Assembly (NCBI RefSeq): GCF_000146505.1
Contig: NC_017448.1
Span: 1,170,001-1,202,000, forward strand
Origin: Fibrobacter succinogenes subsp. succinogenes S85
GTDB lineage: Bacteria; Fibrobacterota; Fibrobacteria; Fibrobacterales; Fibrobacteraceae
DNA: 32,000 nt
Direction: 5' to 3'
Numbering within the stretch: the first letter of the stretch is position 1; each line of letters opens with the position of its first letter. The notes under the pieces were generated by a model. That model saw only the letters and a program-made list of their open reading frames with translations, searched no databases and was not told the origin of the DNA. Of the stretch, positions 14,392 through 20,096 are shown one piece after another. Both the position numbers and the translations under genes were made by a program.

Positions 14392-14411
14392 CCCGCCGCG
14401 ATTGCGACGGG
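14392..14411 (-). terminator. Hairpin 3, directly downstream of lipoprotein paralog 3
   Basis: The minus strand reads CCCGTCGC-AATC-GCGGCGGG, fully paired with one G.U on the minus-strand RNA (C.A on the plus strand). The arms are identical to those of the hairpin at 17740-17759. Confidence 0.4.
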
Positions 14412-14418
14412 CTTCATA

Positions 14419-16095
14419 TTATTTGATAACTAGGCCCTTTTTCCCAGAGACGAACGGGTCTTCGCCCGTCGAACAGAAATTCGTTTTTTCGGAGTACTTG
14501 CCAAGCCCTCTTATATTAATTCGGCTCTTAGCATTCGCTTCACCTTGGACTGCAAAGAGAATCGATGTCATAAATGTCGTACTGACTTCACTAAACACCG
14601 TCATAAAATTATCCCAATCGGCACATACCGTCTTTAGCTTAATGGACTTGGGCAATGTCATCTTAGGCATTCTAGAAAGATTTCCAAATCCACCTTCTTG
14701 AGTATAAGCCAAAACAACTTCCAAGTCAGAGTCCGAAGCATACGTTACGCACAAGCCTCCCCAACTTGAGATATTAGCCTTAGCAGCCGGTAAATCACCA
14801 TCAAGCGGATCAACAACACCAGCGACATGGAAACCTATACCCAAATAACCTTCTTTTGCAAATTGCAATTCACCACAAGCGCCCATACAGTAATCATAAA
14901 TTTCATCGCCCGTCGGATATTCAATCCCAAGCGGTTGCGGTAATTTTACAGAACCAACACCGGACATATCGTCGCCAAAGCTGAACCAATATCCTGAAGT
15001 TTCGGATCCGTTGTCTAGCCCGGTCTCAACATGATAATCATTATTATTGACAGCCTTCGGACCATACCACATTTCGCTAACGGACTCAGGCGAGACACAA
15101 TCGTGAGAAGGAGTAAAAGACGAACTGCTCCCGTTCACGCCAGAGCTGCTTGAGCTACGCAATATAATCGTTCCGACCTCAGCTCCTCCATTGAATTTAG
15201 AAACAACCTCCGCGAAACCGTCTACTTCGCACGCTCCCATCGCATCAAATTTACCGATTGCAGCGATATTGAAATGTCCTTTCGTTTCCTCGGAACTTTT
15301 CATTACGACTCTAATGGAATGGGCATGCTTAGCCGCCTCAGCAGCCGTCGATGTTGCTTTTGCTGTTGCACCGACAAATTCACTCCAAGGAACGCACTTT
15401 TCAACAAATTCAAGAGATTTGTCCAGTTTGACTTCATAGAAAGTAACTGAATCTGCGCCAAGCCACAAGAACATATCCCTGTCGGCAGCATACGTCACAC
15501 AAACACCGCCCCAGTCACTGATATCGCCATACCGCTGGATATGTTTCGTATAATATTCTTCAGGATTTTCAACCCCGGCGACATTAAATCCGACACCCGC
15601 AAAAGCTTCATTTAAGATGCCTTTTTGCAAGACAATCGCTCCACTATATCCCCCATAATATTCAAGCAAGTTTTCCATGCATTCATACTCAGGAGTTTCA
15701 AACGCGCAGACATCGGGAAAAACAACACTTGACGTTCCGCCATCAGGATCATCGCCAAAATTATACCAAAGTCCGGCATAATTATCAAGATCCTCATTAA
15801 CAAAACCCGTATTCACGTATGTCTTTTTATCAAAGCCCCGCCACAAGCAGGCAGCTGTATTCTTCGGTGTTTTGGCACTACTTGAGGAATTTACAATCAC
15901 GCTACTTGATGACTCGCCCCCAACGACGCTCGATGACATTCCAACACCATCACTGCTACCAGGAACGGTTTCAACAGATGAACTGCTATTGCCGTAAGCC
16001 GGGACATCAAAACTACCCGACGGGTTATCGTCAGAGCAAGCAACAAAGCCAAACAGCAAGGCACTCGCCGCAATATCTAAAATTCTCCTAAACAC
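14419..16095 (-). CDS. Two-module Cys-containing lipoprotein, lineage-specific paralog 3 of 3
   Basis: 558-aa ORF with a GTG start 6 nt after AAGGAG. The signal peptide and lipobox read MFRRIL...FVACSDDNPS and are followed by a Ser-rich linker. Two ~190-aa modules carry WGG(V/L)CVTY, AG(V/I)GF, KC/VCxxW and FNI/INIxG.GK motifs. Confidence 0.8.
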   Translation of the reverse strand: MFRRILDIAASALLFGFVACSDDNPSGSFDVPAYGNSSSSVETVPGSSDGVGMSSSVVGGESSSSVIVNSSSSAKTPKNTAACLWRGFDKKTYVNTGFVNEDLDNYAGLWYNFGDDPDGGTSSVVFPDVCAFETPEYECMENLLEYYGGYSGAIVLQKGILNEAFAGVGFNVAGVENPEEYYTKHIQRYGDISDWGGVCVTYAADRDMFLWLGADSVTFYEVKLDKSLEFVEKCVPWSEFVGATAKATSTAAEAAKHAHSIRVVMKSSEETKGHFNIAAIGKFDAMGACEVDGFAEVVSKFNGGAEVGTIILRSSSSSGVNGSSSSFTPSHDCVSPESVSEMWYGPKAVNNNDYHVETGLDNGSETSGYWFSFGDDMSGVGSVKLPQPLGIEYPTGDEIYDYCMGACGELQFAKEGYLGIGFHVAGVVDPLDGDLPAAKANISSWGGLCVTYASDSDLEVVLAYTQEGGFGNLSRMPKMTLPKSIKLKTVCADWDNFMTVFSEVSTTFMTSILFAVQGEANAKSRINIRGLGKYSEKTNFCSTGEDPFVSGKKGLVIK

Positions 16096-16126
16096 AACGC
16101 ACTCCTTTATTACTTAATTATAAATT

Positions 16127-17662
16127 CTATTTTTCAAAAAAGGCTGGTGTTTCAAAAGAGCACGCGCCATTAACGGAATATTTCCCTATACCCGCCAAAT
16201 TAAATCTACATTGTTCATGATCCTCAGTACCCTTTATAGCAAACTGGATAGCACCAACAGCTCGCCCCATATCAGGGTCATTTGGCGCAATTTCATTCCA
16301 AGTAAAGCACTTTTCGACAAGCCCACTGGACTTTGGCAAAGCGACCTTAGGAGAGTTCTCGTAAGGAACATCTTTTACAACAAAGTTCAAGTAAGCATCC
16401 TTTTCGGAATAGTAAGTGACGCAAACACCGCCCCAGTCTTGAATATCTTCGAAAACGTAATCGCCATCATTAAAGCCCGCAATATTAAACGAGACCCCGC
16501 CAACAGCGTATTCAGCCCCTTCCAGAGTAAAATCCATCGTCCCACAAAAACCGAGACAATCCTCAATAAGGCCACCATACACTTCATATCCAAACTCCCC
16601 TGACAGCTCCACCGGGAATTCAATATGAGCATAAGCGTCACCAGGAGACGCCTCAAAATGTTCCAACCAGCCCGCGTACCTGTCACGGTCATTATAGCCT
16701 GTTTTCACATGGGTTCCGTCAACCCCTTTCCACAGACAAGTCAAGGAATCATCATCAGGAAAATTTACATTGACCCCATCATTAGGAAATTCCCAATCAA
16801 ACGAAAATTCGTCCGGTTTATAAGTACTGATTCCCCTAATATTGAAAGTTTTCTTATCGTCATCACCTTGGCTTTTAACCTCAAACATGATAGACAGGAT
16901 TTCCTTTGCGGCCTCTTCTCCCGTATAAACCTGGCGATTGATTGAATATTCGGAATATTTCCATTTAGTTATATCAAAACGGCTCCATTCTGCACATACA
17001 GTTTTAGGCTCGTCAATCCAATACAAATTACGAAGTGTGGGTTCAGAACCACCATGCGTCGTTCTTTCTAGAAAGCCCTCAGGATATGCCATGAACGGCC
17101 ATATTTCACTATTGGAATCAATTCCATCAACATTAACTTTCAAATGGACATACATCCAATAATCAGATTCATACGTGATACAGATACCACCCCAAGACGA
17201 AACATCCGCCGTAGCGCCGTCCCTGGCTAGTTGGATTTCAAAACCAGCCCAAGGTCTATACACTGAAGTATCGGGTTCAAGCGATCCGCATAAGCCATCA
17301 CAATGTTTAAAAACAGAGGCCAAAGGAGTCGATGATTTTTCGAGTTCGACAGGGAAAACAATCTTCGATTTACCCTGTTGACCAAACAAGGTATCGCCAA
17401 AGGTTCGCCAAAAGCCCGTGCTATCGTCACCCGTTTTGACCTTGTAATCTACGGCAGGGTCCCACAAGTTATAGCGGCGAGCCTTTACCGCACCACTCGA
17501 AGAAGACTCGACTACGACACCGTCACTCGAAAGAGCATCTACAGACGAGCTACTCCCTTCTGCGATAGGCTCAGCAATCGGAATCGAAGGATTGTCATCG
17601 GAACAGGCGACAATTCCAAGTAAAAAGGCTGAAATCGCGCCCCCAAGGATTCTCCTAAACAT
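16127..17662 (-). CDS. Two-module Cys-containing lipoprotein, lineage-specific paralog 2 of 3
   Basis: 511-aa ORF with an ATG 6 nt after AAGGAG. The signal peptide and lipobox read MFRRIL...IVACSDDNPS. Its modules contain SSWGGICITY / QDWGGVCVTY, HCDGLCG / DCLGFCG, and FNIRGISTY / FNLAGIGKY. Confidence 0.8.
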   Translation of the reverse strand: MFRRILGGAISAFLLGIVACSDDNPSIPIAEPIAEGSSSSVDALSSDGVVVESSSSGAVKARRYNLWDPAVDYKVKTGDDSTGFWRTFGDTLFGQQGKSKIVFPVELEKSSTPLASVFKHCDGLCGSLEPDTSVYRPWAGFEIQLARDGATADVSSWGGICITYESDYWMYVHLKVNVDGIDSNSEIWPFMAYPEGFLERTTHGGSEPTLRNLYWIDEPKTVCAEWSRFDITKWKYSEYSINRQVYTGEEAAKEILSIMFEVKSQGDDDKKTFNIRGISTYKPDEFSFDWEFPNDGVNVNFPDDDSLTCLWKGVDGTHVKTGYNDRDRYAGWLEHFEASPGDAYAHIEFPVELSGEFGYEVYGGLIEDCLGFCGTMDFTLEGAEYAVGGVSFNIAGFNDGDYVFEDIQDWGGVCVTYYSEKDAYLNFVVKDVPYENSPKVALPKSSGLVEKCFTWNEIAPNDPDMGRAVGAIQFAIKGTEDHEQCRFNLAGIGKYSVNGACSFETPAFFEK

Positions 17663-17737
17663 ACAACACTCCTTTCTTTTATCTATAAATTGTAATATAT
17701 ATTATTTCTTTTACTTAGTTACCAGTTATGAATACAA

Positions 17738-17761
17738 AGCCCGCCGCTAACGCGACGGGTT
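17738..17761 (-). terminator. Hairpin downstream of lipoprotein paralog 1
   Basis: The minus strand reads CCCGTCGC-GTTA-GCGGCGGG followed by CTTTG. The plus-strand version is followed by TTTTCTT. Confidence 0.45.
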
Positions 17762-17808
17762 TTCTTACATCAATTCTTTTTATTTAGAAGCTTCGCTCCC
17801 AATATATT

Positions 17809-19149
17809 TTATTCATTTACAGGGAACAAGGTAACCTTAGACACATCTATTTTGCAAGTTCCTGTGGGTGAATATTTTCCGACAGCGATGACGCTCAACC
17901 CTGCAGTCGTATCCACGAGACTTCTCAATTCAAATTCAATAAGGCTCGCATTTTTTGCCACTTCCTGAGCAGACATTTCTTCCCAAGTCAAGCATTTTTC
18001 AATAGGCGATGTCGACATCGGCAAGGTAGCGCTAGCTTCATGAGCGGAGTCAGCCACAAGCACAAGACGCGCATCCATCTCCGACATGTAAGTTACGCAG
18101 AGACCGCCCCAGGCGCTAACATCTCTAGGCTTGGGGTAGAAATCTTCGCTTTCTTCATCATAGCCAATAATCTGGAGACCGATGCCTGCAAAGGCTTCTT
18201 CATTATTGTTCTTTTGCAGGTTTACAGTCGCAGAAAGGCCTCCCTTCGACTTCACGACATCGGCTACCCAGACGGAAACACTCATGTACTTTGACGGCAA
18301 TACATCCCATTCAAGCGACGATAAGCCACCTTCTTCCTGGTCGTTAAATTCATACCAGGATCCGCCTTCCAGGCCGTCATAGCCCGTAATCAAAGAATCT
18401 CCATCATCCTTCGGTGCTGCATTCCAGAGGCAGGAATCCTGTTCCAAAGAATCAATCTTGACAATACCGTGCTTATAGGAGCTAACGCCTTTAATGTTGA
18501 AGAATCCCGATTCCTTCGACTTGCCCATGAACTTGAATATCAGCGAAGTCACCTTTTTAGCCACTTCAGCACTGGAACCATTCTGGAATTCAGCCCATTT
18601 CGCACAACGTGCTGCGACAGAACCCTTTGTCGTCTTTTCAAAATTGACAGACGGCATGTCTTCCGCTGAAGCTTCTGCATCGCCATCCTTATAGCCAAGC
18701 AGGCCCTTCATCGAGAGTTCCGATTCATAGGAAACGCACAAGCCGTCCCATCCGGAAACATCTATAGCAGTATCCTTTTCGACAAGTGCAATACCCACGC
18801 CTGCGCTAACGTCAGAACCTTCTCCAAGTTCAACAGTTCCGCAAACACCGCCGCAATAGGAGACCACGGATTCCATGGCATCCGGCGAATCGTCTTCTTC
18901 CACGGACACAGGGAACGTAATTGAGGACCGTCCAAGAACAGGAGAGCTTTCAACGTACCAGTAACCGGTAACGCCGTCGCCCATATTGACACGAGCACTA
19001 CCGTTCGCGCCATTCCACAGGTCGTACTTGTACTGTGTGTTGTCGGCAACCGGGTTGCCTTCTTCCGTAATCCCGGCAGTTTCTTTGGAACATGCGACCA
19101 TGCCCAGCAAAAAAGCACAGGCAGAGATGTTAATTAGGTTCCTTAGCAT
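17809..19149 (-). CDS. Two-module Cys-containing lipoprotein, lineage-specific paralog 1 of 3
   Basis: 446-aa ORF with lipobox LGMVACS. Its modules contain SGWDGLCVSY / SAWGGLCVTY, YCGGVCG, RCAKWAEF / KCLTWEEM, and FNIKGVSSY / VIAVGKYS. Confidence 0.8.
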   Translation of the reverse strand: MLRNLINISACAFLLGMVACSKETAGITEEGNPVADNTQYKYDLWNGANGSARVNMGDGVTGYWYVESSPVLGRSSITFPVSVEEDDSPDAMESVVSYCGGVCGTVELGEGSDVSAGVGIALVEKDTAIDVSGWDGLCVSYESELSMKGLLGYKDGDAEASAEDMPSVNFEKTTKGSVAARCAKWAEFQNGSSAEVAKKVTSLIFKFMGKSKESGFFNIKGVSSYKHGIVKIDSLEQDSCLWNAAPKDDGDSLITGYDGLEGGSWYEFNDQEEGGLSSLEWDVLPSKYMSVSVWVADVVKSKGGLSATVNLQKNNNEEAFAGIGLQIIGYDEESEDFYPKPRDVSAWGGLCVTYMSEMDARLVLVADSAHEASATLPMSTSPIEKCLTWEEMSAQEVAKNASLIEFELRSLVDTTAGLSVIAVGKYSPTGTCKIDVSKVTLFPVNE

Positions 19150-19969
19150 CGCACTTGTCCTTTCCCCATGTCAGAGGGAACAGCTGTAAATTCAATCGGT
19201 AAACGCGGTCAGTACCGCGACTATTCAACGCAATCTGGGCAATCCTCTTTCTGCAGGTATCAAGCTCCTGCAAAATTTGTTCATAATCCTCATCGGAAAT
19301 GCCCATCGTAAGACCCGTAAAATTACGTTCCTCCGGATCAAAACGGTCAATCGCTTCCCCAGCGAAAACGGCCATTTTGCGGTGCATATAGCGAAGCGCC
19401 ATGGACACCACAGAAGACGAACCCTTCAAATGCTTGTCCGCCTGCTCGTAGGTATCGCCGTTTTTCTTTAAGAGCCCCACGCGTACCATGAAATCAAGCG
19501 AATCGCGGATTTCACCAGCAGAGACGCATTGACAGCAACGCCTGGCAATATCGCCCGGAGTCGCCTTCGGCATAATCGGCGCAAGCTCTCTCACCACCGG
19601 ATGCACCCAGGATTCAAAATACTTGAACGCATCGCCATCGACAAGTTTTACCTTGTTATTGGCAGCAAGCTCCATCATGGATTCAAAGGCTATTTTGCGT
19701 TCCTGGTCCGTCTTGGCATGGCAATAAGTCACCATGGTCTTGAAATATTCAAGTTCAAAACCAGCAAGGCTCATGGCCATTCCGACCTTTTCTGCCCCTT
19801 GAGGAGAAAGGCGGGTCTTACCCTCACACACCAACTTCAAATAAGTTGGAGACGTAAAGCCCGAGGCTTTCGCATATTCACGCCACGAAAACGACGAAAC
19901 TCGCTTACGTTCGTCGTAATAATCTTGCATATAAACGCGATAGTCCTGATATTCCGTCACCGACTTCAT
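19130..19969 (-). CDS. TIGR02147/DUF4423-family protein (putative HTH regulator)
   Basis: The N-terminus MKSVTEYQDYRVYMQDYYDERKRVSSFSWREYAKASGFTSPTYLKLVCEGKTRLS matches my memory of the family signature. The track ORF extends 13 codons further, to 20008. The 3' end overlaps the next gene's start by 20 nt. Confidence 0.7.
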   Translation of the reverse strand: MKSVTEYQDYRVYMQDYYDERKRVSSFSWREYAKASGFTSPTYLKLVCEGKTRLSPQGAEKVGMAMSLAGFELEYFKTMVTYCHAKTDQERKIAFESMMELAANNKVKLVDGDAFKYFESWVHPVVRELAPIMPKATPGDIARRCCQCVSAGEIRDSLDFMVRVGLLKKNGDTYEQADKHLKGSSSVVSMALRYMHRKMAVFAGEAIDRFDPEERNFTGLTMGISDEDYEQILQELDTCRKRIAQIALNSRGTDRVYRLNLQLFPLTWGKDKCDAKEPN

Positions 19970-20096
19970 CGCAATAAATATATATAATTTTGTATTAAAC
20001 GGCAACATTTCATGATACCGTTTACACGTTTTTAGCTTAAATTTGCAAGAATTGCCGAAATTTAATCAAAATCGGCATTTTCTATGATACAGGAAA

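Follow-up and report, generated by a model that had tools for sequence, protein, structure and literature searches.

A TIGR02147 regulator-lipoprotein cassette of Fibrobacter succinogenes S85 and its divergent CIA30/CBM11-type modules

Fibrobacter succinogenes is a rumen bacterium among the best cellulose degraders known, and the organisation of its cell surface is a long-standing question. To our knowledge, the species has neither cellulosomes nor polysaccharide utilisation loci (PULs). The locus described here comes from strain S85 and consists of a gene for a TIGR02147-family protein followed by three genes for lipoproteins, LpA, LpB and LpC. It lies within a 32-kb stretch of S85 DNA (the window), and all coordinates are window positions. 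The open reading frame (ORF) list bears out what a sequence-only reading of the same DNA had described, namely four minus-strand genes in the same orientation, with lipoproteins of 446, 511 and 558 amino acids (aa). An exact-sequence match identifies the genes as FSU_1062 to FSU_1059, or Fisuc_0631 to Fisuc_0628. Public annotation calls the first a 'TIGR02147 family protein' and the other three 'putative lipoprotein / hypothetical protein', and a literature search of open-access papers and preprints found no main-text mention of FSU_1059 to FSU_1062. The genes and their parts are the following.

19130..19969, minus strand: TIGR02147/DUF4423 protein, FSU_1062 / Fisuc_0631, 279 aa, without signal peptide, with an N-terminal Xre/HigA-like helix-turn-helix (HTH) and a central MarR-like winged helix (weak fold matches)
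19130-20008, minus strand: alternative extent of the TIGR02147 ORF in the ORF listing
17809..19149, minus strand: LpA, FSU_1061 / Fisuc_0630, C9RM80, 446 aa, with lipobox LLGMVAC, then CSKETAGITEEGN, then two modules
18442-19041 and 17812-18441, minus strand: modules A1 and A2 of LpA
16127..17662, minus strand: LpB, FSU_1060 / Fisuc_0629, C9RM79, 511 aa, with lipobox LLGIVAC, CSDDNPS, a Ser-rich linker and two modules
16763-17497 and 16130-16762, minus strand: modules B1 and B2 of LpB
17669-17674, minus strand: Shine-Dalgarno sequence AAGGAG of LpB, 6 nucleotides (nt) before the start codon
14419..16095, minus strand: LpC, FSU_1059 / Fisuc_0628, C9RM78, 558 aa, with a GTG start, lipobox LFGFVAC, CSDDNPS, Ser-rich linkers and two modules
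15208-15867 and 14422-15120, minus strand: modules C1 and C2 of LpC
16102-16107, minus strand: Shine-Dalgarno sequence AAGGAG of LpC, 6 nt before the start codon

A 20-nt overlap joins the stop of the TIGR02147 gene to the start of LpA; the gaps that follow measure 146 nt between LpA and LpB and 31 nt between LpB and LpC. The overlap, the shorter gap and the AAGGAG-6-start contexts of LpB and LpC all agree with the sequence-only reading, which had left the start of the first gene between 19969 and 20008. The former position (M14) is almost certainly the true one, because the TIGR02147 family model begins there and the ATG at 20008 falls inside a conserved -35 region. Public gene models differ on this point, giving the protein 292 aa (ACX74243, ADL24809) or 279 aa (WP_041260021). 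They also give LpA either 446 aa or, in RefSeq, 430 aa (WP_248656807.1). Judging from the difference in length between the unaligned models, the 430-aa version would begin at a Met within the lipobox and lose the signal peptide. Since promoter and signal peptide are conserved, the 279-aa and 446-aa models are favoured.

By the curated cut-offs of both families, the first gene product belongs to TIGR02147 and DUF4423 over their full length. Its match to TIGR02147 (NCBIfam) reaches E=6.5e-88 and 294.7 bits against a cut-off of 50, across model positions 1-270 of 272, and that to DUF4423 (PF14394, Pfam) reaches E=1.8e-30 and 106.4 bits against a cut-off of 30. The latter covers the C-terminal residues 121-279 and not, as first proposed, the N-terminus. 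An AlphaFold2 (AF2) model of the protein has a predicted local distance difference test (pLDDT) score of 75, rising to about 90 over residues 1-100, and is all-helical apart from one beta-hairpin wing. Foldseek gives weak matches that agree with one another, for the N-terminus to the HigA/Xre HTH of 9chn_C (probability 0.99, template-modelling (TM) score 0.58, root-mean-square deviation (rmsd) 2.3 A over 66 columns) and for the central part to MarR-family winged-helix repressors (E 0.035-0.5, probability 0.9-0.97, large rmsd). The best conserved segment among 115 TIGR02147 paralogues is formed by the N-terminal 55 residues (0.83 vs 0.64-0.74). No paper discussing TIGR02147 was found among open-access papers and preprints; the sole paper found on the family lists a Bdellovibrio member as up-regulated and says nothing more, and lipoprotein linkage, GTATCAT boxes and a leaderless layout are not described in the family literature found.

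The association of a TIGR02147 gene with lipoproteins of this kind recurs well beyond the window. In species-representative genomes, about 30 of 57 loci have such a gene as the direct upstream neighbour of multi-module lipoprotein genes. These loci had been selected via the lipoprotein, and hence a second search was carried out from the regulator side. Among 80 rumen-metagenome loci collected by TIGR02147-alignment search, 67-68 of about 88 evaluable TIGR02147 genes directly precede a module lipoprotein, and nearly all the remaining ones precede another lipoprotein. The possibility raised in the sequence-only reading, that TIGR02147 paralogues elsewhere show no recurrent linkage to such lipoproteins, clearly fails on these counts. 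The lipoprotein start usually lies -35 to +1 nt from the TIGR02147 stop. Regulator-lipoprotein cassettes often stand in tandem, and loci of single-module lipoproteins are mostly without a TIGR02147 gene. S85 itself has at least 28 TIGR02147 rows among the first 1985 genes listed in Table S2 of PMC6204037. All 57 genome loci belong to Fibrobacter except one in a Fibrobacterales metagenome-assembled genome (MAG) and one on a short contig binned as Bacteroidales. This contig (L048, JAEEQV010000395.1), 2.4 kb long, of low coverage and from a Bacteroidales-labelled MAG, carries the only module match outside Fibrobacterota and probably reflects a binning error rather than horizontal transfer.

Three elements precede the TIGR02147 gene of the S85 locus.

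20084..20090, minus strand: distal GTATCAT box, adjoining the stop codon of hisH on its downstream side
20012..20018, minus strand: proximal GTATCAT box, abutting the -35 element
19977..20005, minus strand: promoter-like element from a consensus scan, with TTGCCG (20005-20000), 17 nt, TATATT (19982-19977) and 7 nt to the ATG at 19969

The two boxes, 72 nt apart, follow an arrangement common to the family. GTATCAT is present in 89-90 of 113 unique TIGR02147 upstream regions, against a background of 0.13 per kb per strand. The proximal copy lies at -50 to -44 relative to the ATG, and in 62 of the 63 regions with two boxes the second copy is placed 70-73 nt upstream of it, with phased A/T tracts between the copies; at some loci the distal site forms the palindrome ATGATAC-N4-GTATCAT. 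Closer to the gene, 62 paralogous or orthologous upstream regions conserve the order (T)ATTG(A/C), about 17-19 nt, TATATT, 6-8 nt and ATG. The TIGR02147 gene has no Shine-Dalgarno sequence, and those of LpB and LpC are canonical. This conserved promoter architecture fixes the start of the TIGR02147 protein at M14 and predicts a leaderless or near-leaderless mRNA, and it makes the boxes a candidate operator for that protein. The only other GTATCAT in the window, a third copy at 649-655, has no promoter-like continuation and was taken as chance. An inverted repeat, TGCCGA-N13-TCGGCA (20053-20077, minus strand), lies between the boxes just past hisH. It is not conserved in paralogous upstream regions, and it may be a hisH terminator or part of the regulatory region. 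Besides hisH, the genes flanking the locus are those for RNase PH and prephenate dehydratase and an outer-membrane-like ORF.

The three lipoproteins are paralogues (BLASTP E=1e-24 to 2e-47), and off-diagonal matches reveal an internal duplication, in keeping with the diversification via tandem duplication proposed earlier. Each of them has a signal peptide that ends in a lipobox with the invariant Cys, A19-C20 being invariant among 40 homologues. The architecture first described for all three, with signal peptide and lipobox, Ser-rich linker and two modules, is found entire in LpB and LpC and without the linker in LpA. The six modules align across about 200 aa with 22-33% identity between them, and share 13 invariant positions, including W, G, W, G, G, G, W-G-C-Y, C and W. 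At the DNA level, a 43-nt segment coding for the WGGxCVTY motif has six occurrences at 60-72% identity. The motif CxGxCG, previously claimed for five of the six modules, is present in four (A1, B1, B2 and C2).

The conserved Cys pairs noticed in the window extend to the family. Across 386 modules, both Cys of the CxGxC pair are present in 288, a single one in 3 and neither in 95 (phi 0.98). An N-terminal Cys (CLW) and a C-terminal Cys (GxC) occur together in 78, singly in 11 and not at all in 297 (phi 0.92). The WGGxC Cys is found alongside all 284 instances of the KCxxW Cys. Such pairing would be expected from disulfides in an exported protein, of which three are predicted, within CxGxC, between the N-terminal and C-terminal Cys and from WGGxC to KCxxW; a metal site at CxGxC may be an alternative. 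A further feature concerns the segment after the lipobox (in LpA, residues 20-40, 19030-19090, minus strand), where the lipoprotein adjoining a TIGR02147 gene carries a motif G-[ITVS]-[TS]-[ED]-[ED]-x-N, as in AGITEEGN or GTTEEKN, at most about 15 residues past the lipidated Cys. This motif occurs in 59 of 69 unique N-termini of first lipoproteins (loci L001-L137), those with non-module cargo included. It is present in only 6 of 59 lipoproteins further downstream, which begin with CSDDNPS and a Ser-rich linker instead. It might act in sorting or mark a site of processing.

Direct scans gave no match of LpA, LpB or LpC to Pfam, NCBIfam or PDB sequences, and marginal matches to CBM77, DUF2130 and BNLF2a (E 0.05-0.13) were dismissed as noise. 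A word-indexed search with LpA found 59 relatives, none with a Pfam domain, and those with a named source were all from Fibrobacter. A profile built from the six window modules was then used for an exhaustive search of representative protein clusters (50% identity), and retrieved 697 clusters with E<=1e-3, of which 542 reach E<=1e-10. The proteins have 1-5 modules each, and 1-4 full modules in the 209 sequences examined. Against PDB sequences, the same profile returned only spurious designed TIM-barrel repeats and a marginal beta-galactosidase-like domain. The link to a named family comes from within the module family, where the Pfam domain CIA30 (PF08547) is matched by 7 of 83 members, two of which exceed the gathering score of 24. 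In P0131, CIA30 scores 29.3 bits at residues 384-541 and the module profile E=1.4e-50 at 364-544; in P0126, the values are 24.4 bits at residues 312-465 and 1e-53 at 287-487. Homology to CIA30 is thus established transitively, through these two proteins. The statement of the sequence-only reading that the module fits no named domain therefore holds for the window proteins and no longer for their family.

The structural evidence converges with this bridge. The AF2 model of LpA, built with 40 homologues, has a pLDDT of 75, about 90 in module 2 and about 70-85 in module 1, and is all-beta with one helix per module. In a Foldseek search of the PDB its top match is the Bacteroides surface glycan-binding protein (SGBP) SGBP-B, 7kwb (E=5.6e-7). 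On this model of moderate confidence, it also superposes on the fold of the carbohydrate-binding module (CBM) family CBM11, with TM scores (target-normalised) of 0.60 for 1v0a and 0.50 for 6r31, probability 1.0, about 200 columns and an rmsd of 7.3-7.4 A. CBM-like domains of Vip3 and Cry toxins were matched as well. The CBM-like beta-sandwich suggested earlier for the modules thus reappears in the predicted model. NDUFAF1/CIA30 is reported to resemble CBM11 closely, its concave cleft included (PMC9668296), and CBM_11 and CIA30 are placed in a single CDD superfamily (PMC4093234). Because the CIA30 sequence bridge and the CBM11 fold match converge, the module is no orphan fold and belongs to the CIA30/CBM11 superfamily of beta-sandwiches, as a very divergent branch that has expanded in Fibrobacter and that lies outside either named family by their own criteria.

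In larger relatives, the module is combined with Fib_succ_major, PKD, collagen repeats, an OprF domain or the C-terminal sorting domain of the type IX secretion system (T9SS), and surface proteins of Fibrobacter use it generally as a building block. P0134, P0169, P0090, P0118, P0152 and P0144 carry it alongside surface-type domains; in proteins of about 2000 aa, Fib_succ_major is present as many as five times.

Two hairpins follow the lipoprotein genes.

17740..17759, minus strand: terminator-like hairpin between LpA and LpB, CCCGTCGC-GTTA-GCGGCGGG then CTTTGTATTC, 8 bp with 7 G-C pairs
14392..14411, minus strand: twin hairpin after LpC, CCCGTCGC-AATC-GCGGCGGG

The pattern CCCGTCGC-N4-GCGGCGGG occurs exactly twice in the window, against 0.01 expected. 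Either the twins are a terminator that was copied when the genes duplicated, or they represent a small repeated element. As for a single operon, the overlap of the first two genes and the short gap of the last two are set against the 146-nt interval with its hairpin, across which mRNA falls from 8.76 to 7.24 on a regularised logarithmic (rlog) scale. The hairpin after LpA likely splits the locus into two transcription units. Hence the tie of the lipoproteins to the upstream regulator gene, first drawn for all three, applies to LpA, which is physically coupled to it, and not to LpB and LpC, which stand behind the hairpin with Shine-Dalgarno sites of their own. Chemostat RNA-seq gives mean rlog values of 8.13 for the TIGR02147 gene, 8.76 for LpA, 7.24 for LpB and 8.00 for LpC (PMC6204037, Table S2). 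The standard deviation of the four genes is 0.16-0.24 rlog over cultures of several growth rates, with cells adherent to cellulose, planktonic on cellulose, or fed cellobiose or glucose (PMC6204037). The locus is constitutive at a moderate level, with a step down past LpA. LpC mRNA is above that of LpB (8.0 vs 7.24). About 300 nt into the LpC coding sequence is the segment of the region that best fits a sigma-70-type consensus (15760-15788, minus strand; TTGATA, 17 nt, TG-TATAAT, 11/12), which could be an internal promoter or chance.

Our preferred, still tentative reading is that the locus belongs to a type of cassette widespread in Fibrobacter, which regulates itself and supplies surface lipoproteins for ligand binding. 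In the first unit, the two-box promoter would drive a leaderless mRNA for the cytoplasmic TIGR02147 protein, with translation coupled to LpA via the 20-nt overlap, and this protein would bind the GTATCAT boxes and autoregulate the unit. In favour of such a regulator are the HTH and winged-helix fold matches, the conservation of boxes, promoter and N-terminal HTH, and the co-variation of other S85 TIGR02147 genes with their neighbour in RNA-seq. The second unit, LpB and LpC, would be reached past the hairpin by read-through or be transcribed separately, and paralogous lipoproteins would have been added downstream through tandem duplication. LpA, LpB and LpC would be exported, receive their lipid at the lipobox Cys and be held by it in the outer membrane, where they are probably surface-exposed, because acidic residues come directly after the lipidated Cys. 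A place outside the cytoplasm agrees with the lipoboxes, with the T9SS sorting, Fib_succ_major, OprF or collagen parts of relatives and with the detection of LpA and LpB in the S85 envelope proteome (PMC6851124). Each would then display two beta-sandwich modules, presumably stapled by disulfides. In the superfamily, the cleft holds an extended chain, a glycan in CBM11 and a peptide loop in NDUFAF1, and binding of an extended ligand at the cell surface would therefore be the most likely job of the modules. Given a plant-fibre specialist with SGBP-B and CBM11 as the nearest structures, the ligands would most plausibly be plant-wall glycans, for which the paralogues would have diversified in specificity; peptide binding as in CIA30, or a purely variable-coat role, may apply instead.

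Several observations weigh against this reading. On the side of the regulator, the fold matches are weak (best E=0.035), the TIGR02147 profile has no match below E=0.8 among PDB sequences, and one box common to all paralogues fits a shared factor or a special promoter class equally well. As for the modules, LpA, LpB and LpC themselves have no CIA30 match even at E<=1, and neither the window proteins nor the 83 family members match CBM_11 (PF03425) at E<=1. The AF2 model of LpA is only moderately confident, CIA30 binds peptide and not sugar (PMC9668296), and the residues conserved family-wide (W, G, C, Y) look structural rather than ligand-specific. No glycoside hydrolase domain was found in 14 large relatives or in 83+10 smaller ones, and in the relatives scanned the module does not form part of a carbohydrate-active enzyme, as CAZy requires of a CBM. 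Neither cellulose nor cellobiose nor glucose alters the mRNA level of the locus. In an envelope proteome, LpA and LpB were quantified with three peptides each and changed by -1.66 and -1.33 fold, respectively, on cellulose vs glucose, and LpC and the TIGR02147 protein were not found in its tables (PMC6851124). In view of the flat mRNA and the slightly lower LpA and LpB protein, induction by cellulose was rejected for the locus, and published data lend no support to the cellulose link that the sequence-only reading had implied; the missing induction makes a dedicated cellulose adhesin less likely here.

Among the alternatives, it is unlikely that the modules make up a variable surface coat, in which the cassette repertoire would evade phage, protozoan grazers or host antibody and the paralogues would cross-regulate through the common box and so determine which cassettes are active. 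Such a coat would fit the divergence of the modules down to 22-33% identity around retained scaffold residues, the tandem duplication of cassettes, the identical GTATCAT box and highly conserved HTH across paralogues, and a locus without substrate response. It would also fit the wide differences in expression between S85 cassettes: the TIGR02147 genes of Fisuc_0366/0367 and Fisuc_0495/0496 co-vary with the adjacent hypothetical gene over about 4.4-7.2 and 7.8-13.3 rlog (PMC6204037), and the present locus is flat. This steady expression in bulk culture nevertheless counts against a coat, as do the lack of any convincing inverted-repeat pair or simple repeat around the promoter and the lack of PADLOC matches. 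Phase variation was set aside, as no invertible-repeat or simple-sequence hardware for it turned up around the promoter.

A second alternative, to which we give about the same small weight, is that the TIGR02147 protein does not read the GTATCAT boxes. These would then mark a dedicated promoter class or be bound by a shared master regulator, and the TIGR02147 protein would act, for instance, as a cofactor or an antitoxin-like partner. The identical box sequence before all paralogues and the weak structural evidence for DNA binding agree with this, and the proximal box is placed where an extended -35 or UP-type element could be. The case for the TIGR02147 protein as the reader is made by its two DNA-binding-type folds, with the HTH as the most conserved segment, by the palindrome ATGATAC-N4-GTATCAT at some distal sites, which suits a dimeric HTH protein, and by the confinement of the boxes, essentially, to TIGR02147 upstream regions.

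Less probable still is that the lipoproteins face the periplasm and bind protein or peptide as CIA30/NDUFAF1 does, with a part in outer-membrane structure or assembly and TIGR02147 as a housekeeping regulator. The acidic residues right after the lipidated Cys (CSDDNPS) speak for export to the surface instead, since they resemble the lipoprotein export signal of the related Bacteroidota, reportedly described by Lauber et al. in 2016. Relatives with T9SS sorting and Fib_succ_major surface domains point the same way, the best solved-structure matches are glycan binders, and dozens of fast-diverging paralogues fit a housekeeping role poorly. In favour of a periplasmic role, no family but CIA30 offers a bridge at sequence level, and its cleft takes up a peptide loop; expression is constitutive, and no fusions to domains of carbohydrate-active enzymes were found. 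Moreover, LpA and LpB follow a general down-shift of lipoproteins on cellulose, where 40 of 49 are lowered (Raut et al.). Finally, a role in defence finds no support, as no PADLOC defence model was matched by any of the four proteins.

The components of the preferred cassette are of known kinds, an HTH regulator beside its likely target and lipoproteins built of tandem beta-sandwich binding domains, and can be set beside their closest counterparts. CIA30/NDUFAF1, the sole sequence-level relative, is likewise a beta-sandwich, about 150-200 aa long, and has a concave cleft for its ligand. It works in mitochondria as an assembly factor and binds a peptide loop, whereas the window modules are tandemly repeated, predicted to be Cys-stapled, lipid-anchored and extracytoplasmic, and have no PF08547 score of their own. 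CBM11 (1v0a, 6r31), with its four ligand-binding tyrosines, is the best single-domain fold match and, like the module, comes from fibrolytic bacteria. Its identity to the window modules is 11-12% without any PF03425 match, and the module is never attached to a glycoside hydrolase in the relatives scanned. The SusE/F-type SGBPs of Bacteroides, such as SGBP-B, are also lipoproteins of tandem CBM-like beta-sandwich domains with highly divergent paralogues; unlike them, the S85 locus has no SusC/SusD neighbour and no PUL, has another type of regulator and shows no substrate induction. A further large family of paralogues specific to Fibrobacter, likewise putative surface lipoproteins, is Fib_succ_major (TIGR02145 / PF09603), of which S85 has 54 copies. 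The domain is unrelated to the module and matches Lcl_C; it is absent from the three window proteins and fused with the module in large ones. The regulator FSU_1062 is a full-length TIGR02147/DUF4423 member.

No earlier description of the TIGR02147-lipoprotein linkage, of the GTATCAT box pair or of the CIA30/CBM11 assignment was found in open-access papers and preprints. For F. succinogenes, a large unnamed lipoprotein family of about 700 clusters at 50% identity is now placed in the CIA30/CBM11 superfamily and tightly linked to the uncharacterised TIGR02147 regulators, which in turn gain a candidate DNA site (GTATCAT, twice) and a candidate leaderless promoter. According to published omics, the cassette at this locus is constitutive and not cellulose-induced. 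In this way, two 'hypothetical' paralogous families become a testable system of regulator, operator and cargo. A bolder extension, which we regard as improbable, is that all TIGR02147 paralogues, of which S85 has at least 28, recognise one common box pair by means of a near-identical N-terminal HTH and form one cross-regulating network that selects which of dozens of divergent CIA30/CBM11-like lipoproteins are on display at the surface. If true, this network would amount to a transcription-factor-based form of surface variation or of substrate-specific remodelling, unlike the PUL regulators of Bacteroidota or phase variation by DNA inversion.

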